Assembly (NCBI GenBank): GCA_965216465.1
Contig: CBDCFW010000006.1
Location: forward strand, 1,216,001-1,280,000
Direction: 5' to 3'
Source: Bacteroidia bacterium
GTDB taxonomy: Bacteria; Bacteroidota; Bacteroidia; NS11-12g; UBA9320
Length of the DNA: 64,000 nt
Of the stretch, positions 47,449 to 64,000 are shown one piece after another; within the stretch, counting starts at the first letter, position 1; each line of letters begins with the position of its first letter. Below the pieces are notes generated by a model, which did not search any database, had not been told where the DNA came from, and was given only the letters and a program-made list of their open reading frames with translations. The translations under genes and the position numbers were made by a program.

Positions 47449-48576
47449 ATGAGACAAAAGCTACTGATCCTTTTACTGGGGATTGCTACGTATGGAAATT
47501 CGCAAACTTTGATCCAACCGATACCGGTCGGAGGCTTTCAAGTGATGTGCGAAAATCTAGTAAACTTTAATGTAATCCATTCCAATTCTGAGTCGGTTAA
47601 TGTGAAATATTAAATATCTGTTCAGCAGGTAGGAGCAGGAACTGTTGTTCAAATGACTTCAGGCATTCATGTGCTGAAAAGCGGCATTAACAACTACAAC
47701 ATTTCAAACATTAACATTGTAGAAAAGCATTATGCCAAATCTGATTTTGCACAATATGAAGCAAAAATGCGTTCATTCCCGATTGGTAGCTATGAGTATT
47801 GTATTGATATCATTTGTGTAGACGAGTTATCAAAGTGTGAAGAGGTGTTAGAGAGTGAAATTACGCGTAAGCAATGCCACGATTTCACCATTCTTCCGAT
47901 GACGCCATTGCTACTTTCTTCACCTGATGATGAAGAAGTAATCGAGACTGTTCGACCAAACTTTACTTGGATCCCACCTATGCCTTTAGGCAATGACCCA
48001 GACATTAGCTACGATTACACTTTAGTGAAATTGAATGAGGATCAGCGCGGTGAAGACGGGATAAGAAGAAATCGTCCTCTTTACGAACGCCAAGGTATTC
48101 AAGCCATAAATTTAGTTTTCCCTTCTACGTTAGAAGATTTAGAGCGTGGTGAACGTTACGCTTGGCAAGTTAAAGCAAGATTGGGTGATGTTGTTGCTGG
48201 AATATCAGAAGTATGGGAATTTGAAGTGGAGGAAGAGAATGAACCACAGAAGTATGTACTTTTAAGCAAAACACCTAACGCTGCAATTTTTGACTATAAG
48301 GATGATGACGTAATCTATTTTATGCATAAATCGCCATATGCTGGCACCAATTATACGATTCGAATTAAAAGTACAGAAGGCGAGATTGTTGCAGATAACC
48401 TGTCTAAAGACTTGTTACTTCGTCAGAACAATGACCACAATGAAACTAAACACACTGGATTAAATACTTACCAGCTTGAACTGAAGAGGTTTAATCTCAA
48501 TCCGGGTATCTATACTTTGATTTTAGAAGACATTAAGTCAAATAAATTCACCATGAAATTTCAAATTATTGAATGA
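47449..48576 (+). CDS. Secreted Ig/FN3-like protein, first gene of the Rhs/YD operon; internal TAA at 47611
   Basis: ATG 47449 (MRQKLLILLLGIATYGNSQ signal peptide) is in frame with track ORF 47653..48576 except for one TAA; PNFTWIPP, YAWQVKA, SEVWEF. Confidence 0.65.
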
Positions 48577-49061
48577 AGAACAGTTTATTAGCCTTACTAA
48601 CCATCCTTTTACTCAGTAGCTGCTCTAATAGCGAGATTAGAACAGTCGATATCAAACAACTGTTCGATGAGTTTAAGTATACCAAAGAGCTTCAACTTGA
48701 ATATAAATTAAAGACCCAACAAGAAGAGGCTGCATTGGATAGTATGTACAAGCAGTTAGCTGCTATCAAGCAACTAACTTTGAGTGATGGGAGCACTGAA
48801 GCTGCAGTTCAAGAAATGGAGATGCGGTTTAATCAACGCTATACGCGATTTGAAGATTTTAAGGCTGAACTTACAGCTAAGTCTGATGAAAAGGTGCTGA
48901 ACCAACTTAGTAACTATATACAACAATACGCGGAGAAGAAAGAGCTGGATATGATTGTAGCCAAAACTCAAGATGATGTAACCGTGCTTTACGCTGAAGA
49001 GTCAATGGATATAACCCAAGAAGTTTTAACTTTTATTAATGACCTCTACGATGCGAAGTAA
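48573..49061 (+). CDS. OmpH/Skp-like protein with lipoprotein signal
   Basis: LSSC lipobox, VDIKQLF, helical coiled coil, YAEKKELDMIV..VLYA..DITQEVL; ATGA overlap. Confidence 0.75.
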   Translation: MKNSLLALLTILLLSSCSNSEIRTVDIKQLFDEFKYTKELQLEYKLKTQQEEAALDSMYKQLAAIKQLTLSDGSTEAAVQEMEMRFNQRYTRFEDFKAELTAKSDEKVLNQLSNYIQQYAEKKELDMIVAKTQDDVTVLYAEESMDITQEVLTFINDLYDAK

Positions 49062-49602
49062 GTTGTTTATATACGTTATTTCCGTTCTAATGTGCTCTGC
49101 ATGTTCAAAGTCCAGTAGTGAGCAACAGCAGGACGTTGGCACAAGTTCGGTTCCTTTAAACTCGAAAAAAGAAAATCAACTAAAAGAGTTTCGGAATGCT
49201 AATTATGCACTAACGTATTTAACACCAGAGTATCGTGCAAGTCAGCTTTATGAAACAGGCTCAAGTCAGTATAGAGCGGAATTAATAAACCAGCAAGAAC
49301 AGAGTGTTTATCGGTTGAGAATTTCTAATAATTTAGGTAAACCTGTACTTGACTATGATCACCCTGATCTATATAATCGAGAAGATAGGCTCCAGTACTT
49401 TATGAACAGTTTTCCTTTAGGAATTACCATGCTGTCAGAAACAGATACTTTAAAACCAAGCTTTTACCATTTGGTTCAACCCAATCCAATGGTTCCATAT
49501 ATTGACCTAATGGTGGGTTTTGATCAAAAATATAACCCAAACGATCTATTTCAATTTGAAGATGAATACTTTAACAATGGACGAATAAAACTAAGAACGT
49601 AA
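49051..49602 (+). CDS. Hypothetical lipoprotein of the Rhs/YD operon
   Basis: MRSKLFIYVISVLMCSAC lipobox; start overlaps the OmpH stop. Confidence 0.65.
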   Translation: MRSKLFIYVISVLMCSACSKSSSEQQQDVGTSSVPLNSKKENQLKEFRNANYALTYLTPEYRASQLYETGSSQYRAELINQQEQSVYRLRISNNLGKPVLDYDHPDLYNREDRLQYFMNSFPLGITMLSETDTLKPSFYHLVQPNPMVPYIDLMVGFDQKYNPNDLFQFEDEYFNNGRIKLRT

Positions 49603-49604
49603 CT

Positions 49605-52600
49605 ATGAAATCTATAATTAATAACATTCGGAGAGTAGCATTTTTGTTGCTTTTGATTTTCTCGATAGAGATTGTCTCTCCTCTTACTGCATTTGCCTTA
49701 ACTGGAGGCCCATCTCAGCCTGAAGTTCAAAGCTTTCAACCTGTTGGGGCATCGGATATGGTTGATCTATTTACTGGGGATTTTTCATATAATATACCTC
49801 TGCTTGATGTCGATGGTTACCCCATTAATTTAAGTTATTCTTCAGGGATTTCAAACGACCAAGAGGCAAGTTGGGTAGGATTAGGATGGAACATAAATCC
49901 AGGTGTAATCAACAGAGCGATGCGCGGAATTCCAGATGAGTTTAGCGGAGATCGAATCATTAAGAAACAAAAAACGAAACGAAATTTAACTATCAATGCC
50001 AATTTCGCACCTGATGTTGAGTTTTTTGGTAAACCAAAAACCAAAAAAACGAAGAGCGGAGATTCTATTAAATATGGTGTAAATCTGGCATACTCTTTAG
50101 GAATGAAATGGAACAACTATACTGGGTTTTCTATAGAACCAACCTTAAATGCTGGAGTATTTGTAGGCGGAGATAAGGGGACCATGTCTGGCGGACTAGG
50201 ACTTACGTCTACTTCTAGCGGTTTAACTATATCTCCAGATATCAGCTATGAGAAAAAGATTGATAAGCTAGACAAAGAGAGCAAGCGTCCAGACTTTATT
50301 AAATTTGGTTTAAGTACAAATTATAACGCACTTAGTGGATTTTCTTCACTAACCATTTCTAAGACCACAATGGACAAAGGTGCGATTGATGATAACAAAA
50401 AGAAAAGACGTGGGGCGGGAGCTGGATCTATAAATATTGGAATACGATCATATACCCCAGCTATCTCCATGCCGCTTAAGAATTTTAATGGAAGTTTTAC
50501 CTATAAATTTGGTCCGGATGCGATTGGTTTTTTTCCAAATGCTACCATTTCAGGATCAGTTTCGGAGCAACATTTGAACGTTCCTGAAACTGGATTGAGA
50601 ATGCCCGCTTATGGCTACAACAACACCGACAAGGCGGTAAGAAGTAATGGTGAAATGAGGGCAGTTCAGGATGTGAATAGAGATTGGGATATGCCTTACA
50701 GTAAAAATACTCCTGCCTTACCAATTACTAATTTTACCTATGACTTTCTAAGTGTAAGTGGTCATGGTGTAGGTGGTACTTTTAGACCATTTAGGGGAGA
50801 TTATGGTTATGTATCTGACAATTACGCTCGTAATATTAGCGTAGGTGCATCTATGGGATTGGAAAGTGGATTCGGGAACACCAATGAAACCGGTTTTAAA
50901 TATGAAGACAATGTAGTAACCACTACAACAAAAACATGGGTGCGTCAAAATAGAATGGCTGAAAAATTCTATTACCAGCGTGATAGAGAAGAAGCCGATT
51001 ATGAGGCTTATACATACAAACAGTTGGGCGAACTTTCTGTTGACGATGAGCCTGAATTTTACAACATGATTCAGAACGATAAGGCGGTAAAAGTACAAAT
51101 TGAAAAAGGTGGAGGCTTTCAAACAAAGGCAAATAATGTTCTGGTTGATGCTGCAGATCAAACTTATGAAATGAGTGGAAAAGGTTACCGAACGAAACGC
51201 CTTAAAAGAAATCAGACCTTAACCATTGTTTCTCAAAAAGAACGTATTGCAAGAGGAGATTTGGGGGCTCAAGATCTAACGAATATTCCCGGCCATCACA
51301 CTTCTGAAATAACCGTTACACGAAACGATGGAGCTCGCTACATTTATGGAATTCCAGCATACAATCGCACGCAGGAGCAGGTTAGTTTTGCAATTGGAAT
51401 GGATCGAAATCCTGGCAAGAAAGATCGAGAAAATTTTTCAACTTTCCGGGCTAAAATACTGGATGAGAAAGGAGTTTTCCGATATAAAAGTGAACACAAC
51501 AAAATGGACAATGAATATGGTGTCGATAATTTCTATTCCAATACCATAATGCCTGCTTATGCGCATTCTTATTTATTGACTTGTGTCTTGTCTTCAGATT
51601 ATGTTGATTCGGATATGGAACCAGGTCCATCAGATCATGATATTGGTAACTATACCCGATTCGAATACGAAAAGCTTCCTGAATTGTATAAGTGGAGAAC
51701 GCCTTATGAGAATTTTGAAGCCAACTACAATGAGGGGTTGAAGTCAGACTTTTCGGATGACCAGGCAAGTTATGTTTATGGAGAAAAAGAAGTGTGGTTT
51801 TTAAGTAAGATAGAATCAAAAAATACAATTGCAATCTTTCATACCTCCGCACGTCACGATGGTTATGGTGTTGCAAATGAAAATGGAGGTCGAAGTACAT
51901 CAACCCCTTCTACTCACAAGCTTGACAAAATAAGCTTGTATTCTAAAAAAGACTATGAAGATAACGGTCAGAATGCAGTGCCAATTAAAGAAGTACACTT
52001 TGAATATGACTACCACCTGTGCCCTAACGTGCCAAACAATGACGGCCAACCGGAATTAGATGCGAATAATGATGATCTTAATGAAGACAAAGGCAAGCTG
52101 ACCCTAACTCGCGTCTATTTTACATATGGTAATTCAAACAAAGCTAAATTTAGTCCTTATGTGTTTGATTATTCAGATTTCAACCCAGATTACGGGCTAA
52201 AGAATTACGACAGATGGGGAAATTACAAAGCACCGGCAACAGGCTCAGACTTATTTGATTCTCAGTCAGAAATGACCAATTCTGAGAATCCTTATGTTGG
52301 CAAAGACAAGACGAACGCAGATCTCTACGCTTCTGCATGGACACTCAAAAGTATTAACCTACCTTCTGGGGGAACGATTTCAATAGAAGTTGAGGCCGAT
52401 GATTATGCCTATGTTCAAGACGAGGTGGCTCATGAGATGTTCAGAATTGTTGAAACTGGAAATTCAGAGGCCAGTTTGGAGGATGCAAGTCCAACTGCTA
52501 AATTAATGGATATAGACAACAACGACGAGGTCTACCAATGGGTTAAATTTCCTTTAAAGTCAACTCTTGATCCTTCTACGACCGATGATGAGTTTAAAGA

Positions 52601-55034
52601 GATGTATACCCAAGGTATAGAGAATAACATTTATTTTAAATGCTTAGTGGACATAACCGGTAAGCAAGACTATGAATATGTTAATGGTTACTGCCAAATC
52701 AGTGACGCTGGCTTGGTAGATAATGGGGGAAGTCCATACGAATATGGATGGCTCAAAATAAATAAGGTGCCAAAAAATAGTTTGGGTCTTGGTGATTATG
52801 TACATCCAATTTCTAAGGCTGCATGGACGTTCGGGTTAAACGCTATGCCACAACGTGTTATTGGTAAAGATTGGGATGATAATGGAGGATTTAAAGATTT
52901 TCTTCGGGTGCTTGGAGATGCAACTTTTGTTAAAGGATTGGTGCAAGCGTTTAAGGGTCCAAATGATGTAATTAAATCAAATGGTGGAGGCGTGAATATT
53001 TCGAGTACTAAATCACTCATTCGACTAAAGACCCCTGATTTAAAGAAAATCGGAGGAGGATTACGTGTTAAGAAGATATTAGTATCAGATGAGTGGGCTA
53101 CAATGGCCAACGCTGCAACAAATCCGTCTCAAGTAATTGGATCTGAATATTCGTATACAATGCAAGAAGATAGATACGATGATCCTATATCTTCAGGTGT
53201 TGCTGCATGGGAGCCAGCGATTGGGAATGATGAAAATCCATTGCGTATTCCTATCTACTATGGAGACGAAGATGCAAGAGTAATTTCAATCAAAAATGTA
53301 GATTATCTTGAAGGGCCAATTGGCGAGAGTTTCTATCCCAATCCAAGTGTTGGATACCGAACGGTTACTGTTAAATCCTTATCACACAACGATATTAACC
53401 GTCACGCTACAGGTAAAACAGTACATAAATTCTACACTGCGAAAGAATTTCCTGTCATTTCTGAGCAAACTTCAATTACCCCAGTTAAGAGCAGAACCCC
53501 AAGCTTATTAGCTGGTATAAACCCCTATTCAAGAGATCACATGGCAGCCTCTCAAGGCTATGCCATTCAAGTAAATGATATGCACGGCAAACAGCGCTCG
53601 GTAGAAGTGTATCAAGAGGGAAATACTGATCCCATTTCAGGGGCAAAATATATCTACCAATCCGATCCTTACGAAGAAGGATCTTGGAAATTGAATAATA
53701 CCTGTACTGTTGTTCGTCCAGATGGAAGCACTGACCAGCGAGAAATTGGAGTAGAATTTGACTTTGTTATGGACTTCAGACAGCAACAAACTCTGGGTAT
53801 TTCTCGTTCGGTAAGTCCGCAAGTAAGTACATTCTTAGCCGCCTTTTTGCCGGGAGTAGTTCCTTCAATATGGCCGGGCCTAAGTGTTGATGACACTCGA
53901 TTTAGAAGTGCGGTGACAACTAAAGTCATTAATCGATACGGAATATTAAGCGAGGTTGTAGCCTTTGATTTAGGCTCTGAGATAAGTACGAAAAATCTGG
54001 CGTATGATTCTGAAACAGGACTGGTACTGCTAACTCAAACAGTGAACGAATTTGAGGATGACATTTACAACTTTAACTATCCAGCGCACTGGTATTACGA
54101 TGGAATGGGTCAAGCTTATAAAAACTTAGGATTAGAGTTTGCAAGCATAACGCTGACCTCAGGAATACTTTCAGGCGTAGAAAATGCTCACACCTACTTT
54201 GTTCCTGGAGATGAGCTTTTACTCGACAATAAGAAAAAGGCATGGGTGCTGAGTGTTAATGGGGAAGATGTCACCATTATAAATAAAGCAGGAGGAATAA
54301 TTACAGGCACATACAGTACCTTAAAAATAATCCGCTCTGGAAGAAGGAATATGATTGGTGTTGGCATGGGAAGCATGGTAACAATGGAGAATCCTTTACC
54401 TTTTTTACAAAGCAATCAGTTTAATAAAGTACTGAATACTTCAACCCAAGAGTATAAAGAGGATTGGGAGACATTTTGTGAATGCTACAATAATTTAGGT
54501 TCGCCGATGATTTCAACCAGTAATCCATACCTGAATGGGGTAAAAGGAACGTGGAGACCGTTTAAGTCGTATGCCTATTTAACTCCGAGAAACCATACGT
54601 GGGACGACAACAATACGAACATTCGTGAAGATGGAATCTATTCCCGTTACAATCCTTTTTGGATATGGGGAGACAATGCTTGGGGAATTGATCAAACCAA
54701 CTGGACTTGGACTTCTGAAATAACGAAATACACCCCTTATGGGGCTGAGATTGAAAATATGGATGCCTTATACCGTTATAGCTCAGCGGTTTATGGCTAC
54801 AATAAATCAATTCCCACAGCAGTGGGGAGCAACATGCAGTATCGTGAAATCGCTTTTGATGGATTTGAAGACTACGACTACTCGAGTTGTGCAGACGACC
54901 ACTTTAGCTATAGACCATACATAGCTGATGTAACGGAAGAAGCCGCACATACAGGTAGAAGTAGTTTGAAAACGGGAAATGGAGACAGTGCTGTGGTTAT
55001 AAAGACTTTAGTTGACTGTGAAGAAGGAATATAG
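49605..55034 (+). CDS. 1809-aa secreted YD/Rhs-shell-like protein with SpvB/TcB-like N-terminus
   Basis: Signal peptide ending AFA; VDLFTGDFSYNIPL..ASWVGLGW..RGIPDE, WFLSKIES, DRWGNY, LKSINLPSGG, GGGLRVKKI, VGYRTVTV motifs of Bacteroidota YD proteins. Confidence 0.75.
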   Translation: MKSIINNIRRVAFLLLLIFSIEIVSPLTAFALTGGPSQPEVQSFQPVGASDMVDLFTGDFSYNIPLLDVDGYPINLSYSSGISNDQEASWVGLGWNINPGVINRAMRGIPDEFSGDRIIKKQKTKRNLTINANFAPDVEFFGKPKTKKTKSGDSIKYGVNLAYSLGMKWNNYTGFSIEPTLNAGVFVGGDKGTMSGGLGLTSTSSGLTISPDISYEKKIDKLDKESKRPDFIKFGLSTNYNALSGFSSLTISKTTMDKGAIDDNKKKRRGAGAGSINIGIRSYTPAISMPLKNFNGSFTYKFGPDAIGFFPNATISGSVSEQHLNVPETGLRMPAYGYNNTDKAVRSNGEMRAVQDVNRDWDMPYSKNTPALPITNFTYDFLSVSGHGVGGTFRPFRGDYGYVSDNYARNISVGASMGLESGFGNTNETGFKYEDNVVTTTTKTWVRQNRMAEKFYYQRDREEADYEAYTYKQLGELSVDDEPEFYNMIQNDKAVKVQIEKGGGFQTKANNVLVDAADQTYEMSGKGYRTKRLKRNQTLTIVSQKERIARGDLGAQDLTNIPGHHTSEITVTRNDGARYIYGIPAYNRTQEQVSFAIGMDRNPGKKDRENFSTFRAKILDEKGVFRYKSEHNKMDNEYGVDNFYSNTIMPAYAHSYLLTCVLSSDYVDSDMEPGPSDHDIGNYTRFEYEKLPELYKWRTPYENFEANYNEGLKSDFSDDQASYVYGEKEVWFLSKIESKNTIAIFHTSARHDGYGVANENGGRSTSTPSTHKLDKISLYSKKDYEDNGQNAVPIKEVHFEYDYHLCPNVPNNDGQPELDANNDDLNEDKGKLTLTRVYFTYGNSNKAKFSPYVFDYSDFNPDYGLKNYDRWGNYKAPATGSDLFDSQSEMTNSENPYVGKDKTNADLYASAWTLKSINLPSGGTISIEVEADDYAYVQDEVAHEMFRIVETGNSEASLEDASPTAKLMDIDNNDEVYQWVKFPLKSTLDPSTTDDEFKEMYTQGIENNIYFKCLVDITGKQDYEYVNGYCQISDAGLVDNGGSPYEYGWLKINKVPKNSLGLGDYVHPISKAAWTFGLNAMPQRVIGKDWDDNGGFKDFLRVLGDATFVKGLVQAFKGPNDVIKSNGGGVNISSTKSLIRLKTPDLKKIGGGLRVKKILVSDEWATMANAATNPSQVIGSEYSYTMQEDRYDDPISSGVAAWEPAIGNDENPLRIPIYYGDEDARVISIKNVDYLEGPIGESFYPNPSVGYRTVTVKSLSHNDINRHATGKTVHKFYTAKEFPVISEQTSITPVKSRTPSLLAGINPYSRDHMAASQGYAIQVNDMHGKQRSVEVYQEGNTDPISGAKYIYQSDPYEEGSWKLNNTCTVVRPDGSTDQREIGVEFDFVMDFRQQQTLGISRSVSPQVSTFLAAFLPGVVPSIWPGLSVDDTRFRSAVTTKVINRYGILSEVVAFDLGSEISTKNLAYDSETGLVLLTQTVNEFEDDIYNFNYPAHWYYDGMGQAYKNLGLEFASITLTSGILSGVENAHTYFVPGDELLLDNKKKAWVLSVNGEDVTIINKAGGIITGTYSTLKIIRSGRRNMIGVGMGSMVTMENPLPFLQSNQFNKVLNTSTQEYKEDWETFCECYNNLGSPMISTSNPYLNGVKGTWRPFKSYAYLTPRNHTWDDNNTNIREDGIYSRYNPFWIWGDNAWGIDQTNWTWTSEITKYTPYGAEIENMDALYRYSSAVYGYNKSIPTAVGSNMQYREIAFDGFEDYDYSSCADDHFSYRPYIADVTEEAAHTGRSSLKTGNGDSAVVIKTLVDCEEGI

Positions 55035-55052
55035 AAAATTAAAAAAGTACAA

Positions 55053-55631
55053 ATGAAAAACAAGTTAAAAACAAGACTTAAAGTGTTAACTCTATTGAGT
55101 GTTTTATCAATTATCAGTGTGGCTATTGTAAGCTGTGGACCAGAAAATAATCCCGAACCAGGAGGTGGAGATGATCCAACATCCAATTTTAAGGAAGAAT
55201 TTCTAATACTTGATGGGGTGCGTTATGAAGCTGATGATTTCAGTGCGAAAATTTTAAAAGATAACAATAGTGAGGATATTCTTGAGATTCAGGTTGATGG
55301 AGTTTATCCAAAGCTATTTTTGACACATGAACGTGAACAAAATTCGGATACGGTAGTGTGCAGAGATTATGAACCTTTTTGGGGTGCACTCTATGACCCT
55401 GATTTTGATACCTATTATGTTCAAGTATGGTACACAAAAGGACCTCTCCCAAATCATTGTCAGTATATGCCACGTAACGAACCTCCTTCGCCTCATGAAA
55501 AATATGAGTTGACGAAAGTTGATGGTAAATACGTGTCTGAATTTGGAAAAATCCAAGTTCAATGTGGTGATCAAGGAGCCGGAGAAGAATGGGTTACCGT
55601 GGAAGGCTATGTAATCTGGGAAGAAAAATAA
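55053..55631 (+). CDS. Hypothetical lipoprotein inside the Rhs/YD operon
   Basis: Lipobox IVSC, Pro/Gly/Asp linker, three further Cys. Confidence 0.7.
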   Translation: MKNKLKTRLKVLTLLSVLSIISVAIVSCGPENNPEPGGGDDPTSNFKEEFLILDGVRYEADDFSAKILKDNNSEDILEIQVDGVYPKLFLTHEREQNSDTVVCRDYEPFWGALYDPDFDTYYVQVWYTKGPLPNHCQYMPRNEPPSPHEKYELTKVDGKYVSEFGKIQVQCGDQGAGEEWVTVEGYVIWEEK

Positions 55632-55668
55632 ACTTATTCTATGGAAACTCTAATTTAAAACTAAAACT

Positions 55669-57831
55669 ATGAAAAATTCGAGAATACTCATATTTATATG
55701 TTATTCACTGTTCTGGCAACTTTCATTTGCTCACAGTGTTGTTGAAACGGAAAAATTGCTAGAGGAGAAAAGCGTGGTATCGTTTATTCTTCAAAAAGGA
55801 AATGAATTGAACTGGGACCAAAAGATTTTACAAGTCTTCGTTTTTAAGAACTTCGTTGAATTGGAGGATGATGTATTGAAGACAGCGAATTTGGCCTTTC
55901 ATGAACACATGGAACTAAACGAATTGGCTGTTGTTTTGGACGAAATTAACTCCAAGTACAATGGCATGCTGGAAGCATTTGATTCTGAGATGAAGGCGGA
56001 CCCCAATCTGATTGAATCTTCAATTGCCGAAATGAATTCAATTGCTCAAGCATCAGCCGCCTCAAACTGTACCAATGTAGGTTTTGAAAGTGGGGCATTT
56101 ACTAACTGGGAAGTACGTTTGGGCTATCGTTGGTACTGTGATTATTCAAGAGAGACGACCAACTTAAACTGTTTCAATTTTAATCCATCTTCATATGCAA
56201 TCGCCAATGCTGCAAATACTTCTAATCCACAATTTGGAAATCGATTGGAGATTATTGACAAGAATACTGTTCCAAATTTATATGACGATTTTGTAGGAGG
56301 TGAAGCCTTACCTATGGTGAGTCCTGATGGAGGTAATTACTCCATTCGCCTCGAGAACAAGACCAATGGATACGGTGCTACCGAGATCAGTTACGAATTT
56401 GTTGTAGATCCTAATAACCCCTTCTTTGAGTATCAGTTTGCCGCCGTGATGGAGGATCCTGGGGAAAGCCACCCGGCAGAGAGCAAGCCATTCTTTTCGG
56501 TGAAAATTTATGAAGACAATGGAGACGAAATTGAGTGTGCACGATATATTGTAATTGCGGATTCTGAAGATAAATACTTCGAAACCAATATTTATAAAGA
56601 AGTTCCAGGCAAAGGAGGATTTAAGTACTGTGACTGGCAAAAAATTGCTATCCCATTATCTGAATTCGCTAATGAAACATTAACTATTAAGTTTATAGCA
56701 TCAGATTGTCCTTGGGGCGGACACATGGGCTATGCATATGTAGACGGGTCGTGCTTTAACGCATCTATTACCCAATCAGATTGTAATCTAGATGGTACGA
56801 GAGATCTTGAATTTCCTGAAGGATTTGATTCATATCTTTGGCTTGGTCATGAATTGGTTACAACCAATTCCAGTCGGTCAATTAAGGTAAGAGGAGAAGG
56901 ACCATTTAAGCTGATGGCTCATTCGCGTGGGTGCATGCATATTGACACAATATCTCTCTCCACTTGTGATCAACCTCCTGCACCTAGCTGTGCCCTATCC
57001 TTGAGCAATGTAAATGTTACGGCGTGTGATATTGAGAATGAACATAACGTTACGGGTACGGTTTCAATATCACTGTCAAATTATTCGGGACAACATCATG
57101 TACTAGTGACCAACGGAATTCAAGAACAGGTTTTTGAATACGTAGAAAATACATCACTTAACTTTTCGTTTGAGAATTTGTATTCAGATGGAGAGCAGCG
57201 TGAAATAAAAGCCTATTTATTTACAGATGAATTTTTCGCAAAAGATGCAGCTATTTGTACCCAAACAACAACATACAATGCCCCTGAATCTTGTATAACT
57301 TTTCCGCAGAGTTGTGCGTGCATTGGCTCATTTGCACCTATTCAAAAAGACAAGGTTGTACACGGAATTACCGAATCAGGTATTTATGTCTTGGGTGCAT
57401 GGATTAAGGAACACAATGCTCCGGCAACCCAAATAAGCTACGACGATGCGTATATACGCGTTGAGTTTTACAATGGGGCTACCCAGTTAACCTCAACTAG
57501 CTTCAATGCTTCAGGAATGATTATTGACGGTTGGCAGCGCATACATGAGGAATTTGAAGTTCCACCTACCGCAACATCAATTCAAGTTATTCTAGGCACA
57601 ACCAGTGGCGAAGCTTATTTTGATGATATCCGTATCTACCCTAAAGATGGAAGTATGCAATCGTATGTATATGACCCGGTTAGCTTAAAACTGGTAGCGT
57701 CACTCGATGAGAACAATTACGCAACACTGTACGAGTACGACAACGAAGGGCGACTAATACGAACCAAAAAAGAAACCGAAAGAGGAATAATAACTATACA
57801 AGAAAACAGACAAAGCACTATTAAACAATAA
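55669..57831 (+). CDS. Secreted modular protein: Cys-rich adhesin-like domains plus C-terminal CBM-like/YD-repeat module
   Basis: Signal peptide; CTNVGFESG..YSIRLEN..YQFAAVMEDP..GHMGYAYVD; C-terminal GAWIKE..GWQRI..FDDIRIYP..SYVYDP..YEYDNEGRLIR. Confidence 0.7.
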   Translation: MKNSRILIFICYSLFWQLSFAHSVVETEKLLEEKSVVSFILQKGNELNWDQKILQVFVFKNFVELEDDVLKTANLAFHEHMELNELAVVLDEINSKYNGMLEAFDSEMKADPNLIESSIAEMNSIAQASAASNCTNVGFESGAFTNWEVRLGYRWYCDYSRETTNLNCFNFNPSSYAIANAANTSNPQFGNRLEIIDKNTVPNLYDDFVGGEALPMVSPDGGNYSIRLENKTNGYGATEISYEFVVDPNNPFFEYQFAAVMEDPGESHPAESKPFFSVKIYEDNGDEIECARYIVIADSEDKYFETNIYKEVPGKGGFKYCDWQKIAIPLSEFANETLTIKFIASDCPWGGHMGYAYVDGSCFNASITQSDCNLDGTRDLEFPEGFDSYLWLGHELVTTNSSRSIKVRGEGPFKLMAHSRGCMHIDTISLSTCDQPPAPSCALSLSNVNVTACDIENEHNVTGTVSISLSNYSGQHHVLVTNGIQEQVFEYVENTSLNFSFENLYSDGEQREIKAYLFTDEFFAKDAAICTQTTTYNAPESCITFPQSCACIGSFAPIQKDKVVHGITESGIYVLGAWIKEHNAPATQISYDDAYIRVEFYNGATQLTSTSFNASGMIIDGWQRIHEEFEVPPTATSIQVILGTTSGEAYFDDIRIYPKDGSMQSYVYDPVSLKLVASLDENNYATLYEYDNEGRLIRTKKETERGIITIQENRQSTIKQ

Positions 57832-58494: not shown

Positions 58495-61400
58495 ATGAAA
58501 AGACTTAAACTCATACTTGCCGGGATTTTACTTTACTCTGCATCATCTTTTGGTGCGTTTTATCCTACATCACAGGTTCAAAATTCAGTAAATTTTGGTA
58601 CCACATTGACCTTGCAGGAGCTCAATTATAGTTCGCTTCCAGGAATGTTGGGCTATACCAATGTTTCGGTTAAGAACTATGTTCAACTAAGTGTTGATTG
58701 GGATAATTATACTTACCATAATAAGTATTCTTATCTTATTGAAATAGAGTTGAAAACGAAAAACAGTGCTTTACAGCAAAGCACCCAGGTTATCACAATA
58801 CCTATAGAGTATGATCCCAATGCAAATCCCGGGACCTCGTATAGTGACAAATCAACTTATCGTTTTACCGATGCACATCAAATCGATGCTAAAGTGTTGA
58901 GTGCATATGATGTAATCAATAAAACTCCTGTTACGCTTGCTAGTTTGCCGTCGAATATTTTGATGACCTCGTACATTGGTATTGAACGTTTTGAAGACTT
59001 TAATACTTCAACTACAGTTTGCCCGAGTACCAGTCTTATTACGCATGCAGGTAGTCCGTCTCCAGACGAGTTAGAATTGGAATGGAGTGCAGTTGCAGGT
59101 GCAGAAGAATACGAAGTGCAGTGGACGTTTGTAGACAATTATGCAGACGACTTTGGTGCCATTCCAGCTTCGAGCATAGGCTACGATTTTGATCAAAATT
59201 GTTCTAAAGTACGCTTATCGGCAGAAACAAAATTTAATATTAGCCTAATCTATGAACGAGGCTACGTGATATACCGTGTTCGGGCAATTGGTCGATCACA
59301 AACTGATTTTAAACATCATATTCTTGGTGACTGGGAAGTTCCTGATAATGCAACTAGTTTAACAACACTTTCATGCGGTTACTATTACTTAACAGACGCT
59401 TTTGAATCCGGATTAAACTGGCAATATAGCATGGCATATGCGGAAGAAGGAAAGAGAAAGGAAGTTATAAGCTATTATGATGGAGCTAATAAAAACAGAC
59501 AAGCGGTAACTGCAACAAACTCAAAAGACACATTAGCGATAGTGGGCGAATCGGTTTACGACTACAATGGCAGAAAAGCGATTGACATTCTTCCGGTGCC
59601 TACTCAATCTCCAGCACTTCGCTATTATGAAGATTTTAATATGAACGCTGGCGCTAGCCAGCATTACGGTTGGGAAGACTTTGATAAAGACGGAAGCTCT
59701 GATTGTGAATCGGCTTTAGGAGCACTTTCAACTAGCAGTGGTGCAGCGCAATATTACAGTTCGAACAATCCAGATCAAACTGATGAGAATGCGTTTATCC
59801 CAGATGCAGGAGGATATCCTTTTGCACAAGTTGAATATACTCCAGACAATACTGGACGGGTGAGAAGACAAGGAGGGGTAGGAGAAACACATCAATTGGG
59901 TGCTGATCCTTGGGCAGATAAGTCTACAAAATACTTTTATGGAAAACCAACACAGATAGAACTTGATCGATTGTTTGGTAACGAAGTAGGCTATGCAGTT
60001 CACTACAAAAAAAATATGGTGGTAGATCCCAACGGGCAGGTGAGCATTTCTTACCTCAATTTAGCAGGCCAGGTAATTGCCACGTCGCTTTCTGGAGAGA
60101 AACCAGGCAATGTTAAGCAGTTGCCCAATTTTGAGAATTCGATTTCCCTTTCTTCAGAACTGCTGAATAAAAATCACTTAGGAAACTATATCTCCAACAA
60201 GATTAACCAAGATTTTGATGGAATCGAATTTAGAACCACGTTTGTAACAGGTGTAGCTGGTATACATACATTTACATACTCCACTACAGCTCAGCAGTTT
60301 TTTGACAATTGCTTGGGTTCGTTCTGTATGGATTGTGCTTACGACCTCGTATTTGAGGTGTGGGACGACTGCGGAAACTTGGTAACATCTAAAACACAGT
60401 ACATCGGGCCGAGCGAATTAAACATGAGCTGTGAAACAGTAAGCTATACGTCACCAGCTTGGGATGTTCAGCTTACAAAAGGTTCATACAACATTGTTAA
60501 ACGCCTAGAAATCAACAAGGAAGCATACGATTATTATTTGAATGAGTATCTCAGTGAATCAAACAATACATGTATTACAACCATGGCTGACTTGATTGTT
60601 GAAGAAAAGAATAAACTCGATTACACTGGCTGTGAAATTGATTGTGATGATTGTGTGGATGAGCTTGGTAGCTTAGATGAGTTTATAGCTAAAAACTATG
60701 GAACAGAAGAAGAGTGGCTAGAAGAGTACAATAATTGCGTAGCAGCCTGCCAAGGAGTGAGTCTGTGTGAAAACATTTTCCAAATGATGAAGATGGACGT
60801 TACTCCTGGAGCACAATATGCTAAATACCAGATTGATGGCGAAGTGGGAGTAGACCCATCAGCGTACCCTTTAAGCTTGCTGAACGAAAGCAACAACTTG
60901 CCTCATCCGAATGCAAACTGGAGAAATCCTGTAAAACTTGATGGGAGCGGCGATGAATATAGGGATGAAGATGGTGAAATTAGTAGGATCTATCTCTCAC
61001 GAGACGAGGAGGGGAATTACACTCCTGCCTGCAATCCAGCCTTTATTCTTTTTGATCCTGTTGAAGGCCCTTACACAAAACCTGAAAACTTAACTAATGT
61101 TGAAGACTTTATCTTCTATTGGCAACAGTCTTGGGCAGAATCATTAGTCTACTACCATCCAGAATATGGATATGTAGAATGGTGTCAAGATTTTAATTTA
61201 AAACGCGAGGGCCAAAATGTGATGAATAGTGATGAGTTTGACAATTTTATCTCTTCGCAAGACAATTATGCTGAAGCTAACAGCAATAATTTGACTACCG
61301 ATGATATTGATCACCTGCTGGATATGGACCCGTTCTTTAAAATCTTCACAACCGAAAAAGCTAATATGCAAGCTTTGTTAGCTGATTTTAATGGAACATC

Positions 61401-64000
61401 TTATGACGCTATGGATTTTGCAGCGTTGGTAAACAACTGTGGTAGCGAATATCACGCAACTCCACCACTGCCAGCAAGCTGTACTGCTTGGGGAGCTGAT
61501 GATGACATCTGGCAAACCTATGTTTCATATTACTTAAGTGCTAAGCAGTTTATACAAAAAGAAATTGCGGATGACTGGGTTATATCTACGGGCCGACTAG
61601 GATTTAATGAATGTATTGGCAATGAGAATTATTCGCCTTCTTCAAGTAATTTGCAAAAGCTTGGGACAGCTCCTGTTTCTGGAACTCCTGCATTTGGAGG
61701 GTTAGAAGGTTTGCTAGAACCATGTGGCAATTTAAATTACACCAAATATCTTAATAAAAAACCACGTTTTGATTTAAAAGCAGTAACCGTAAAAGTGGAC
61801 GAGGAACTCGCACGCTTTAATAGATCGTACCAGTTCAATGCCTGTCCGCTTGCCTTAGATTTTGAATTCTTCTTGAATGAGCTAACCAGTAGAGACAAGC
61901 TTAAAACGACACAAACTAATCTGGACTTAAAAGATTTCAAAAGCCTCACTCCTGCATTGTCGGATGTTATCTTTGGAACAAATCCCGCATCTTCCATTAC
62001 TTGGAATAGTTCAACAACCGGTAACGTTTTAACCGGAAGTTTTCAATACAACTCCAATACGGTTAATGTAAGCTTAACACTAAGCAATGGAACATGGAAC
62101 GATGTAACTCGAATTTTTGCAATTTCTGATGTTGTGTTTGACGATGTTTCCGTTCCGAACACATCCAATTTCAACCTTAAAGCATTGCAGTATAATACAA
62201 CCACAGAAGAGTTTTTACAATCTACAATTGTTGGCTCTTTTGATGTTGATTTGAATAAGGATTGCAAGTTTGAGGATGAGTGTGAACCTACCGATTACGC
62301 ATTTACAATTCGCGATATTTTGGCAGGATTAAGTTTGAACGCAAATGATTTAACCTCTACAACTGCGATTCCCCTTGAAACAACCTATTCTACTTTTATA
62401 AAACGATTTGTTCGAAATGAACTAACTGTGGCTACAAATCTTGAGTATACCTTTAATAGTACCTCTAACAAGGGAACCATCCATCAGCAAGGAGCAGTTG
62501 GTTCTGGAATTGATATTAACTTCCCAAGTGGGTTTAGTGTTTCAAGCATTGCAACAATATACGGAATTGAGGTGGATAAAGACAAGGTAGCAAACGGTTT
62601 AGTAATCTTATACATTGATAGTAATGGAGATAAACAAAGCGTTAAAGTAACCGTAAGCAAGGGTCAAACAGCGAAGTGTTTTGACCCTACAAAGATGTTT
62701 TGTGAAGATATTCGCTATGATGTAACTCGCGACTTTGCCTCTTTATTAGAATACTTAATCGAAAATCCTTCAGTAAACAATGTAAACCTGAACGACAACA
62801 ACTTGTATACGGCTTTACTTCAGAGTTATATAGGACACGGTGATGCCGTATTCAATGTTCCTGTAAGTGGCAATGATGGAAACGAATTGACTACAACAAT
62901 TGATGTATTCGAAACGGGAACAGCAAACAAGTTGACTACATGTGAGCTTAAACTTTATAGAAAAATGTATGGTGACGTGCAGACCGATATTCCATTGACT
63001 GATATTACCGATATTGGCGAGTTGCAAGTAGACATGGAAAATCTTCACATGGGAGACGCCCATCACTTTACTGTTTTAGCCGTATTTAATAACAAAACAG
63101 ATTATGCTGAAGAAATTCATGGTTATATATCCTGCCTTCCTTTATTTGATTGTGCTGATTGTGTAGAGAAGGAAGAGGATGATGCAGAAAAGAAATGTGG
63201 AAACTACGAATATGAGTTATATTATCATGAAATGATGCAACTTGGTATGGAAGGTTTGATTATACCTTATTCTGATGATTTTCCTTGCTCTTGTGTTGAA
63301 GAGTATTTATACTATGTAAAACTTGCCGTGCTCAGTGCAAATAGCAATTCCACAGCGATTACCAATGCAGTGCCTCAATTAAATCCAACATTGGGAATTG
63401 ATGAGTTTGTTTTACCACCGTACAACTGTACGGTTACCTTTCCTGACTGTGATGTCACTCAGGAAATTCTACCAAATATCGTAGCTGAAGTCAATAATTT
63501 CAATGCACAATATGCACAATACTTTCCTACTTTAAGCCCGCCTAGTCTGGTAACTGGTGATGATTGTCATTGTGCTGCTAAATATTTAATATATCTAGAA
63601 TTATGGACTTCCTTGTATGGAACCAATGTTCCGCCAATCCCACCATCAGCCATACCCATTCCTCCATTGAGCTATAACAATTTTCAAATTGGAGGTTGCC
63701 AAATTGATCAGTGTCTGGTAAACTATAAAATGTATCGTGACAAAACCACTTCTGTAGGCGGAGTGCCTATTGTATTTGATCCTGCAATTGGGTGTGATTG
63801 TTGGAAACATTATGCACTCGAAGCGAATTTGCTAACCCCTCACTTATCAACTGATATTACAAATTATTGCAGCAATCGATTGATAAACTTAACATCTTCT
63901 TATCCTCCAAAATATGACCACGTTAATTTCGATGAGGAATTGACCATGTTTGAGGTCAGCTATGCAGATGATGCACCTATTGAATCAAGATCAAGAAGCT
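58495..64000 (+). CDS. Giant secreted DUF6443/Rhs-like protein (>1835 aa), 3'-truncated; missing from the ORF track
   Basis: ATG 58495 (MKRLKLILAGILLYSASSFGA); no stop in the stretches I translated, and its absence from the track fits an ORF running off the edge; FN3-like LEWSAVAGAEEYEVQW, then SYYDGANKNRQ..YDYNGRKAIDILP..YPFAQVEY..GRVRRQGG..VVDPNGQV, then Cys-rich inserts. Confidence 0.8.
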   Translation, partial: MKRLKLILAGILLYSASSFGAFYPTSQVQNSVNFGTTLTLQELNYSSLPGMLGYTNVSVKNYVQLSVDWDNYTYHNKYSYLIEIELKTKNSALQQSTQVITIPIEYDPNANPGTSYSDKSTYRFTDAHQIDAKVLSAYDVINKTPVTLASLPSNILMTSYIGIERFEDFNTSTTVCPSTSLITHAGSPSPDELELEWSAVAGAEEYEVQWTFVDNYADDFGAIPASSIGYDFDQNCSKVRLSAETKFNISLIYERGYVIYRVRAIGRSQTDFKHHILGDWEVPDNATSLTTLSCGYYYLTDAFESGLNWQYSMAYAEEGKRKEVISYYDGANKNRQAVTATNSKDTLAIVGESVYDYNGRKAIDILPVPTQSPALRYYEDFNMNAGASQHYGWEDFDKDGSSDCESALGALSTSSGAAQYYSSNNPDQTDENAFIPDAGGYPFAQVEYTPDNTGRVRRQGGVGETHQLGADPWADKSTKYFYGKPTQIELDRLFGNEVGYAVHYKKNMVVDPNGQVSISYLNLAGQVIATSLSGEKPGNVKQLPNFENSISLSSELLNKNHLGNYISNKINQDFDGIEFRTTFVTGVAGIHTFTYSTTAQQFFDNCLGSFCMDCAYDLVFEVWDDCGNLVTSKTQYIGPSELNMSCETVSYTSPAWDVQLTKGSYNIVKRLEINKEAYDYYLNEYLSESNNTCITTMADLIVEEKNKLDYTGCEIDCDDCVDELGSLDEFIAKNYGTEEEWLEEYNNCVAACQGVSLCENIFQMMKMDVTPGAQYAKYQIDGEVGVDPSAYPLSLLNESNNLPHPNANWRNPVKLDGSGDEYRDEDGEISRIYLSRDEEGNYTPACNPAFILFDPVEGPYTKPENLTNVEDFIFYWQQSWAESLVYYHPEYGYVEWCQDFNLKREGQNVMNSDEFDNFISSQDNYAEANSNNLTTDDIDHLLDMDPFFKIFTTEKANMQALLADFNGTSYDAMDFAALVNNCGSEYHATPPLPASCTAWGADDDIWQTYVSYYLSAKQFIQKEIADDWVISTGRLGFNECIGNENYSPSSSNLQKLGTAPVSGTPAFGGLEGLLEPCGNLNYTKYLNKKPRFDLKAVTVKVDEELARFNRSYQFNACPLALDFEFFLNELTSRDKLKTTQTNLDLKDFKSLTPALSDVIFGTNPASSITWNSSTTGNVLTGSFQYNSNTVNVSLTLSNGTWNDVTRIFAISDVVFDDVSVPNTSNFNLKALQYNTTTEEFLQSTIVGSFDVDLNKDCKFEDECEPTDYAFTIRDILAGLSLNANDLTSTTAIPLETTYSTFIKRFVRNELTVATNLEYTFNSTSNKGTIHQQGAVGSGIDINFPSGFSVSSIATIYGIEVDKDKVANGLVILYIDSNGDKQSVKVTVSKGQTAKCFDPTKMFCEDIRYDVTRDFASLLEYLIENPSVNNVNLNDNNLYTALLQSYIGHGDAVFNVPVSGNDGNELTTTIDVFETGTANKLTTCELKLYRKMYGDVQTDIPLTDITDIGELQVDMENLHMGDAHHFTVLAVFNNKTDYAEEIHGYISCLPLFDCADCVEKEEDDAEKKCGNYEYELYYHEMMQLGMEGLIIPYSDDFPCSCVEEYLYYVKLAVLSANSNSTAITNAVPQLNPTLGIDEFVLPPYNCTVTFPDCDVTQEILPNIVAEVNNFNAQYAQYFPTLSPPSLVTGDDCHCAAKYLIYLELWTSLYGTNVPPIPPSAIPIPPLSYNNFQIGGCQIDQCLVNYKMYRDKTTSVGGVPIVFDPAIGCDCWKHYALEANLLTPHLSTDITNYCSNRLINLTSSYPPKYDHVNFDEELTMFEVSYADDAPIESRSRS

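Follow-up and report, generated by a model that had tools for sequence, protein, structure and literature searches.

In a 64,000-nucleotide stretch of a Bacteroidia bacterium genome (GenBank assembly GCA_965216465.1, contig CBDCFW010000006.1, positions 1,216,001 to 1,280,000 of the forward strand), hereafter the window, one gene encodes a 1809-amino-acid (aa) secreted protein of an unannotated Bacteroidota family with a predicted TcB/Rhs-like, YD-type beta-sheet (P0001; + strand, 49605..55034, all positions being those of the window), and another gene further downstream encodes a 720-aa protein (P0003) with a variable N-terminal part and a conserved tail. The end of P0001 and the tail of P0003 form a single chain in fused relatives, and the break between them falls in a loop of one domain, a jelly roll resembling a carbohydrate-binding module (CBM). 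The interpretation preferred here, at a probability of roughly 0.8, is that a jelly roll of the CBM22/CBM4_9 type underwent an old fission at an insertion-prone loop, and that the two chains re-form it and thereby attach a variable module to the large protein.

According to this interpretation, a TcB/Rhs-like family would carry a CBM22/CBM4_9-type jelly roll between YD hairpins near the C-terminus, and one surface loop of that jelly roll would be a hot spot for added domains, which in the clade of the window would have turned into a boundary between genes. The 1809-aa chain would close with the first strands (FDGFEDY...AHTGRSSL...VIKTLVDC), and the remaining strands, together with the closing YD hairpins, would end a separately secreted second chain. 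After export, beta-strand complementation would restore the jelly roll, and a disulfide from C1805 to the CxC at residues 549/551 may staple the chains together; the variable module would hang on the large protein where fused relatives hold in-chain PA14, GLEYA or PKD inserts.

A jelly roll divided between two genes

The motif AAHTGRSSL occupies residues 1780-1788 of P0001, and the chain stops after residue 1809, 21 residues on. The N-terminal part of the jelly roll, at residues ~1745-1805 (FDGFEDY...AAHTGRSSL...VIKTLVDC), corresponds to 54837..55019 on the + strand, with an approximate start. In P0003, CACIGSF begins at residue 549, GIYVLGAW at 571, FDDIRIYP at 651, SYVYDP at 665 and YEYDNEGRL at 688; residues 549-660 (57313..57648, +) contribute the conserved CxC and the jelly roll's C-terminal portion, and residues 661-720 with the stop codon form the terminal YD hairpins (YVYDP...YEYDNEGRL...KKETERG; 57649..57831, +). 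An earlier sequence-only reading, which held that a YD shell protein is split here and its tail carried by a separate secreted protein, had placed the early stop and these motifs correctly.

The truncated-looking end of P0001 is a recurrent state. A search with its residues 1300-1809, in which 8000 candidates were scored, gave at least 2392 homologs at E ≤0.001. Among the best 119 listed (query excluded), 115 are 1711-2019 aa long and four are shorter (1019-1449 aa), two of the latter being labelled partial or lying on a contig of ~3 kb. The printed C-termini all end F-D-G-F-E-D-Y ... C..DHF ... (A/S)HTG.S ... K.L..C. The stop lies within 75 residues of FEDY, as in P0001, in 48 of the 119, and a longer C-terminal extension is present in 66, the anchor of the pattern search being absent in five. 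By eye, the extension of those 66 proteins is an extra domain of ~90 aa (GGTAPY.FDW...TD..GC) which P0001 does not have. Tail motifs (FDDxR, YVYD) occur in none of the 119 listed closest homologs, and the stop position and C-terminal motif recur. In addition, complete genes lie between the two pieces, and the same architecture, with intact open reading frames (ORFs), signal peptides and intervening genes, is found in related loci L015, L016, L018-L020, L024 and L027. It is therefore scarcely credible that a pseudogene or assembly artefact is at issue, in which a frameshift or an inserted fragment had broken a single gene.

The last 150-170 residues of P0003 are found inside open frames of 2275-2438 aa in relatives. 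In total, 34 related loci were fetched and their ORFs mapped by BLAST to the window proteins, giving 35 loci with the window. The sequence-only reading had proposed BLAST as a check for homologs spanning both pieces, and such homologs are encoded in 21 of the 35 loci, within the corresponding gene neighbourhood, as single chains of 1986-2526 aa that cover P0001 from the N-terminus to ~1800 and then P0003 from ~550 to 720 (for example L013, 2420 aa; L014, 2281 aa; L028, 1986 aa). The correspondence is colinear in L028, where P0001 9-1805 maps to 7-1819 and P0003 547-719 to 1832-1984, with 12 residues between. A fused chain normally precedes a gene for ~230 aa and then a DUF6443 RHS gene. A database search with the fused region returned 317 proteins, with tail motifs at the C-terminus in 118 of the 120 listed, and the fused chains are either compact (~1950-2010 aa) or longer (2100-2900 aa), the longer ones often with PA14, GLEYA or PKD domains. 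The window-type split occurs in nine further loci (L015, L016, L018, L019, L020, L024, L027, L022 and L025), with a second protein of 320-1904 aa; the large gene of L022 lies ~16 kb upstream on the same contig, outside the fetched stretch, and in L025 the contig ends first. The earlier statement that the two segments are normally contiguous is thus right in that fused chains exist, but overstated, as both forms are common. A single genome may contain several loci, also of differing architecture (G014, G146, G190 and G402); one relative has a split locus besides fused ones, and another has seven tail matches.

A second, independent break point, which follows directly on a conserved CxC close to P0001 residue 1600, is found in L033, L037, L039 and L041, which belong to one family of genomes. 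There, the large chain measures 1643-1671 aa, and the second chain has a new N-terminal segment of its own together with the last YD region and the entire CBM. Fused chains often add 180-360 residues at the ~1600 site and ~190-215 at the first site (L021, L023, L029), which suggests that both are hot spots of insertion and have on occasion turned into gene boundaries. In P0001 itself, residues ~1625-1640 (window ~54477-54522) hold no insert, while L013, L014 and L026 add 180-360 residues between the invariant C1625-x-C1627 and NPY..G.KG.WR. The sequence-only reading attributed the two chains to an insertion. The event is not recent, being the old state of a large clade, and since fused relatives often carry in-chain inserts at the same loop, it is better described as the conversion of an insertion site into a boundary between genes.

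The position of the break within the domain was examined with an AlphaFold2 model of L028 residues 1600-1986 (34-row alignment; mean predicted local distance difference test, pLDDT, 77.7). Its only low-confidence loop, model residues 221-235 (L028 1820-1834; pLDDT <50, flanking strands 86-96), coincides with the stretch between the two aligned pieces, L028 1820-1831. In VIA-align comparisons, the top row for the fused tail was mosquito SGS1 (Z 14.8, 200 residues aligned, chain 1322-1545); a whole CBM22 chain (1h6x 3-161) was laid on model residues 130-330 (Z 11.6, root-mean-square deviation 3.2, 136 aligned), with CBM16 and CBM4 next at Z ~10. The Pfam family CBM_4_9 scores 35.6 bits in L041, which has the whole domain, against a cut-off of 25.9, and 20 bits in L033, and the halves in the window give no match to it even at E up to 10. 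Because whole CBM chains span the loop, each of the two genes in the window encodes a portion of a single jelly roll, which is predicted to be complete there only across the two chains.

Both halves are strongly conserved. E1755, Y1757, C1762, H1766, H1782 and G1784 of the P0001 half are invariant in 36 sequences, with C1805 in at least 90%; modelled without a partner, the last 58 residues of P0001 reach a pLDDT of only 39-61, and in the fused model these strands are predicted with confidence. In the P0003 tail, C551 is found in 151 and C549 in 147 of 151 aligned tails, and W578, W622, Q623, D652, D653, R655 and P658 are invariant or nearly so. The YD hairpin region of P0003, borderline for Pfam RHS_repeat (PF05593; 21.9 bits, cut-off 22), has strands of pLDDT at least 90 in the fused model and aligns with the YD strands that flank the CBM of SGS1.

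As for the rest of the large chain, P0001 matches no Pfam or NCBIfam family and has no RHS_repeat match at E ≤0.01; the Rhs-associated core (TIGR03696) is absent from both P0001 and P0003 at the same threshold. Searches of PDB sequences with P0001 alone or with a 36-sequence profile gave zero matches at E up to 1, and a search of a protein-cluster atlas gave unnamed clusters only. An SpvB-type N-terminal domain (PF03534) is only hinted at, with E 0.2 (11.3 bits, cut-off 22; residues 58-122 on profile 5-71). With an AlphaFold2 model of residues 611-1809 (pLDDT 82.6), Foldseek fills ranks 1-13 exclusively with TcB or TcB-TcC chains (E 6e-12 to 2e-9); the later listed rows, to E 0.01 at rank 46, are Rhs effectors, teneurins or SGS1. 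VIA-align places RhsA on top (Z 7.1, 307 aligned), with TcdB1 at Z 6.2 over 471 aligned residues, and a TM (template modelling) score of ~0.2. P0001 is accordingly described from these models as TcB/Rhs-like in fold and is not filed as a TcB. The earlier word "shell" agrees with the TcB matches of Foldseek, but the rigid-body scores are middling. A small beta-barrel sub-domain (model 892-971) dominated the VIA-align comparison of this 1199-residue model with matches to ATPase N-terminal domains at Z 5-6, which was read as a common arrangement and not as kinship.

The second chain is variable in front of its tail. P0003 residues 1-548 (55669..57312, +) comprise a signal-peptide-like N-terminus and a Cys-rich, adhesin-like module; they contain 15 Cys, against nine in all 1809 residues of P0001. 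An exhaustive search with the tail yielded 5911 representative proteins at E ≤0.001, 1209 of them at ≤1e-30, and in the best 150 of the 5911, which are 195-1638 aa long, every match lies at the protein's own C-terminus. Grouped at 60% coverage, the N-terminal parts of these proteins make 55 clusters, and all 13 tail proteins from the loci begin, by eye, with a signal-peptide-like segment. The P0003 module has only six relatives besides the query, two of which carry SprB, CHU_C, Por_Secre_tail or PKD domains; PKD/Ig-like clusters came up at 0.89 in an atlas search and count as no more than a lead. Modules elsewhere include PKD, fn3, VWA, a galactose-binding-like domain (L024) and Ig_7 (L019). 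As to the exchangeable targeting module of the sequence-only reading, exchangeability agrees with the many tail proteins and their varied modules, and the binding or targeting role is putative.

Adhesin-like genes gather around the break: several large genes for surface proteins with LRR, PKD or Big_2 domains, all lacking the tail, stand between the large gene and the tail gene at L022 7957-19998 and L027 6329-13669. Two other candidates were set aside. A Tse5 match of P0003 among solved structures, found by sequence, is at chance level (E 0.77). L017, considered as evidence of module exchange, has a 150-aa tail-only ORF and 7661 bp that are 100% identical to L015 (RHS N-terminus, LolA3 and the last 150 tail-gene codons), beyond which there are stops in every frame and the translation looks compositionally foreign; the contig end is probably chimeric or collapsed.

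Predicted reassembly and direction of change

For the complex, P0001 1640-1809 (36-row alignment) was predicted together with P0003 540-720 (71-row alignment). Docking scores were 0.88, 0.89 and 0.88, and the best of three controls scored 0.00; there were 221-225 contacts, the partners had a pLDDT of 82 or more, and no fewer than 90% of contacts were shared between runs. The docking mark is reached by 116 of 157 solved complexes and by 2 of 215 mismatched pairs, a rough calibration given that our own alignments were used. The tightest predicted strand pairs (P0001/P0003) are 1787-1789/649-652, 1796-1800/637-642 and 1750-1752/653-656, and the interface covers P0001 1736-1756 and 1779-1805 and P0003 551-559 and 635-658, including C1805 and C551. 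The strand pairing that the sequence-only reading had proposed to check by complex prediction is thus found, as a prediction, within the jelly roll.

A Cys before the break and a CxC or CxxC after it, preceding I-x-S-F-x-P, are present in all eight window-type split loci scored and in none of the four loci with the domain whole in the second chain; the fused chain of L028 has a C, 15 residues and then CC. An inter-chain disulfide of C1805 with the CxC at 549/551 may form.

The two pieces also co-occur. In a phylum-wide draw of 401 genomes (tail at E ≤0.001, C-terminal region of the large protein at E ≤1e-10), 53 have a tail match and 24 the large protein, and all 24 are within the 53. Matches in the remaining 29 tail-match genomes are mostly weak, with E ~5e-7 in G074 and G086; among the other 27, G404 (6.5e-12) and G392 (1.6e-15) are stronger than 1e-11. 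A separate tail-bearing ORF exists in each of the seven sampled genomes that have a large gene of 1856-1910 aa.

These results bear on the possibility that the chains do not assemble at all, the P0003 tail being self-sufficient and the FEDY...AHTG strands of P0001 a leftover of an old truncation. In its favour, the extra ~90-aa domain at the end of 66 of the 119 listed split large proteins indicates that the C-terminus can hold other things. Nevertheless, the putative leftover has invariant residues across 36 diverged sequences, the CBM fold requires strands from both sides of the loop, the P0001 half is disordered when modelled alone, the predicted complex stands at 0.88 against 0.00, and the co-occurrence of large gene and tail is strict in the sampled genomes. 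A self-sufficient tail is for these reasons judged quite improbable.

The direction of change was approached with a FastTree tree of 59 large proteins, built on the first 1550 residues so that the trait region was excluded, midpoint-rooted and with long-branch warnings. It implies three architecture changes, and under midpoint rooting every deep branch carries fused forms. The window split type lies inside one clade of 25 rows (21 split, four fused; two changes), and the other split type forms one clade. The rows nearest to the window (64% and ~50% identity) are also split, so the event long predates this genome. The reverse course, in which two chains were ancestral and single chains of 2000-2500 aa arose by gene fusion more than once, draws on the unrooted state of the tree, on the very numerous split forms and on the fact that gene fusion is generally commoner than fission. 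It is nonetheless considered unlikely, given that the deep branches of the midpoint-rooted tree are all fused, that the two distinct break points have a clade each, and that a whole domain is interrupted in a loop, a state which the splitting of one domain explains more readily than the invention of two halves. From the tree and the break points, fission, more than once, is thought very probable.

Several points weigh against the preferred interpretation of fission and reassembly. A docking score expresses the confidence of the model, and the halves of a learnt intact CBM fold can pass, so that the value speaks for compatibility and not for binding; assembly is predicted, and carbohydrate or target binding is putative. 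The fused relatives L013, L036 and L038 do not have the Cys residues in question, and the disulfide proposal is drawn from conservation only. The label "shell" for P0001 rests on Foldseek, with rigid-body Z below 8 and no sequence family. A local similarity common to 128 of 146 N-terminal modules makes them variable, yet not unrelated. Finally, fission and fusion are not separable on a midpoint-rooted tree, and the window split type costs two changes.

The gene block and its neighbours

Eight + strand genes form a tight block from 47653 to past the window end at 64000. The first gene of the conserved cluster encodes a 307-aa protein (47653..48576) with a weak DUF928 match (E 1.5e-4, below cut-off), of which a BLAST-detectable homolog stands upstream of the large gene in 21 of 34 related loci mapped. 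It is followed by an OmpH/Skp-like periplasmic chaperone of 162 aa (48573..49061; Pfam OmpH 47.8 bits, cut-off 32.4), with homologs in 15 of the 34 loci, and by a conserved 187-aa cluster protein without a Pfam or NCBIfam family (49039..49602), with homologs in L012-L016, L019 and L020. P0001 comes next. Between the two halves lies P0002 (55053..55631), a predicted lipoprotein of 192 aa with, by eye, a lipobox-like IVSC (...AIVSC-GPENN); a 43% identical homolog occupies the same place in L015, none was found in L016, and no Pfam or NCBIfam family matched. P0003 is followed by P0004 (57836..58492), a 218-aa LolA3-family protein (NCBIfam LolA3_fam, NF053579; 95.5 bits, cut-off 83), and by P0006, a DUF6443 RHS toxin of 4174 aa in the genome, whose N-terminal 1835 aa lie inside the window (58495..64000) and which continues past it. 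All are on the + strand. The intergenic gaps from P0001 on are 18, 37, 4 and 2 bp, and no terminator-like site was seen between the genes in a scan of the + strand. Promoter-like sites number 28 against 36.8 in shuffles, that is, fewer, and the scan was otherwise uninformative.

P0006 combines DUF6443 with a Ycf48-like propeller, and Rhs_assc_core scores 33.9 bits (cut-off 32.5) at residues 3857-3922. Downstream of the 4174-aa RHS gene, at L002 13587-15089, stands a 500-aa ORF with an Rhs-associated core of its own (40.5 bits), followed at L002 15092-15598 by a 168-aa ORF; the pair resembles an orphan toxin cassette whose second ORF may be an immunity gene.

In 23 of the 27 related loci examined (E ≤0.001), LolA3_fam matches the gene that separates the tail gene from the RHS gene; 10 of these matches exceed the curated cut-off. 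This fixed place points to a dedicated role in this system. In the available part of the study of Flavobacterium johnsoniae LolA3, lolA3 (Fjoh_0605) lies in a genomic locus of its own, and its deletion has no gliding or amylase-secretion phenotype, its function remaining unassigned (PMC11885536). A literature search, with subscription journals outside its coverage, found no paper on the present gene cluster; for Fjoh_0602 to Fjoh_0606, it found the LolA3 paper and its preprint only, where Fjoh_0605 alone is named. Bacteroidota, LolA and TcB are not mentioned in the accessible portion of a paper on bacterial teneurin-like proteins (PMC13018210).

The order of these genes also raises the question of which partner the tail mainly serves. 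It may be that the downstream RHS giant or the LolA3-like protein is the main partner, and that P0003 acts as an adaptor instead of, or besides, capping P0001. The tail gene always precedes LolA3_fam (23 of 27) and the DUF6443 RHS gene, and the most conserved part of the tail, its last 30 residues (KKETERG.TI.E.R), lies outside the predicted P0001 interface. In Tc toxins, moreover, the end of TcB meets TcC. Such a role is possible though doubtful as the main one, and it is compatible with the reassembly of the jelly roll from two chains.

Taken further, the cluster might encode a three-chain Bacteroidota counterpart of the Tc-toxin BC complex, in which P0001 would be TcB-like, the P0003 tail would complete a lectin domain, its invariant terminal YD hairpins would form the edge that docks the TcC-like DUF6443 RHS toxin, and the dedicated chaperones in the periplasm would be the Skp-like and the LolA3-family protein. 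This extension is speculative and is held with a little less credence than the adaptor role just described. If it is true, the gene boundary in the lectin loop would be a plug-in socket through which the adhesion target changes while shell and toxin remain untouched, and LolA3 would have its first function.

Apart from that extension, a family of at least 2392 homologs without a Pfam or NCBIfam model gains a TcB/Rhs-like fold assignment, a conserved operon and a partner RHS toxin, and the LolA3 family gains a fixed genomic setting. The division of a small domain over two genes throughout a large clade is a rare case of its kind, with fused relatives as a built-in control, and makes domain complementation directly testable in this system. 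It also suggests a route by which the portion of a large toxin-associated machine that binds surfaces could be diversified in Bacteroidota.

Comparison with known systems

The TcB-TcC cocoon (4O9X, 4IGL, 6SUF) resembles the present system, as predicted here, in its large YD-type beta-sheet, in being built from several chains and in having its gene beside an Rhs-core toxin gene; Foldseek ranks 1-13 are a further likeness to TcB, and the SpvB-type N-terminal motif of P0001 is a weak hint below its cut-off. Unlike TcB, P0001 has no sequence family match, and its rigid-body Z values are 5.7-6.2. The chain break here lies within a decorating lectin-type domain and not between shell halves. What the second chain adds is an adhesin-like module and not a toxin, and the neighbouring RHS protein is 4174 aa long with its own DUF6443 and propeller. 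No TcA-like gene is present among the cluster genes scanned, the search having been limited to the cluster.

Rhs effectors of the type VI secretion system (T6SS) and bacterial teneurin-like proteins (7Q97, 9IFO) share the YD-type sheet, and RhsA is the top VIA-align row for P0001. In contrast to T6SS Rhs effectors, P0001 and P0003 have neither an Rhs core nor a toxin domain and begin with putative Sec-type signal peptides, and no T6SS genes are found among the cluster genes. P0004, for its part, is like F. johnsoniae LolA3 (Fjoh_0605) in scoring above the LolA3_fam cut-off, whereas it is a fixed operon member here and, as far as the accessible text of that study goes, lolA3 has its own locus there (PMC11885536).

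With CBM22, CBM4_9 and CBM16, the divided domain shares the jelly-roll fold, at Z 10-11.6 over whole CBM chains; it differs in standing here without a glycoside hydrolase context, and its lectin-type role is putative. In mosquito SGS1 (PDB 8FJP), residues 1345-1494 are described, in the part of the source available, as a CBM that arises from an insertion in the sequence of the Rhs/YD shell (PMC9935623). Among the structures compared, SGS1 matches the fused tail best, over YD strands, CBM and YD strands again, and likewise bears receptor-type domains in its shell sequence. It is a single eukaryotic chain, whereas the CBM of the present system is a C-terminal element divided between two genes.

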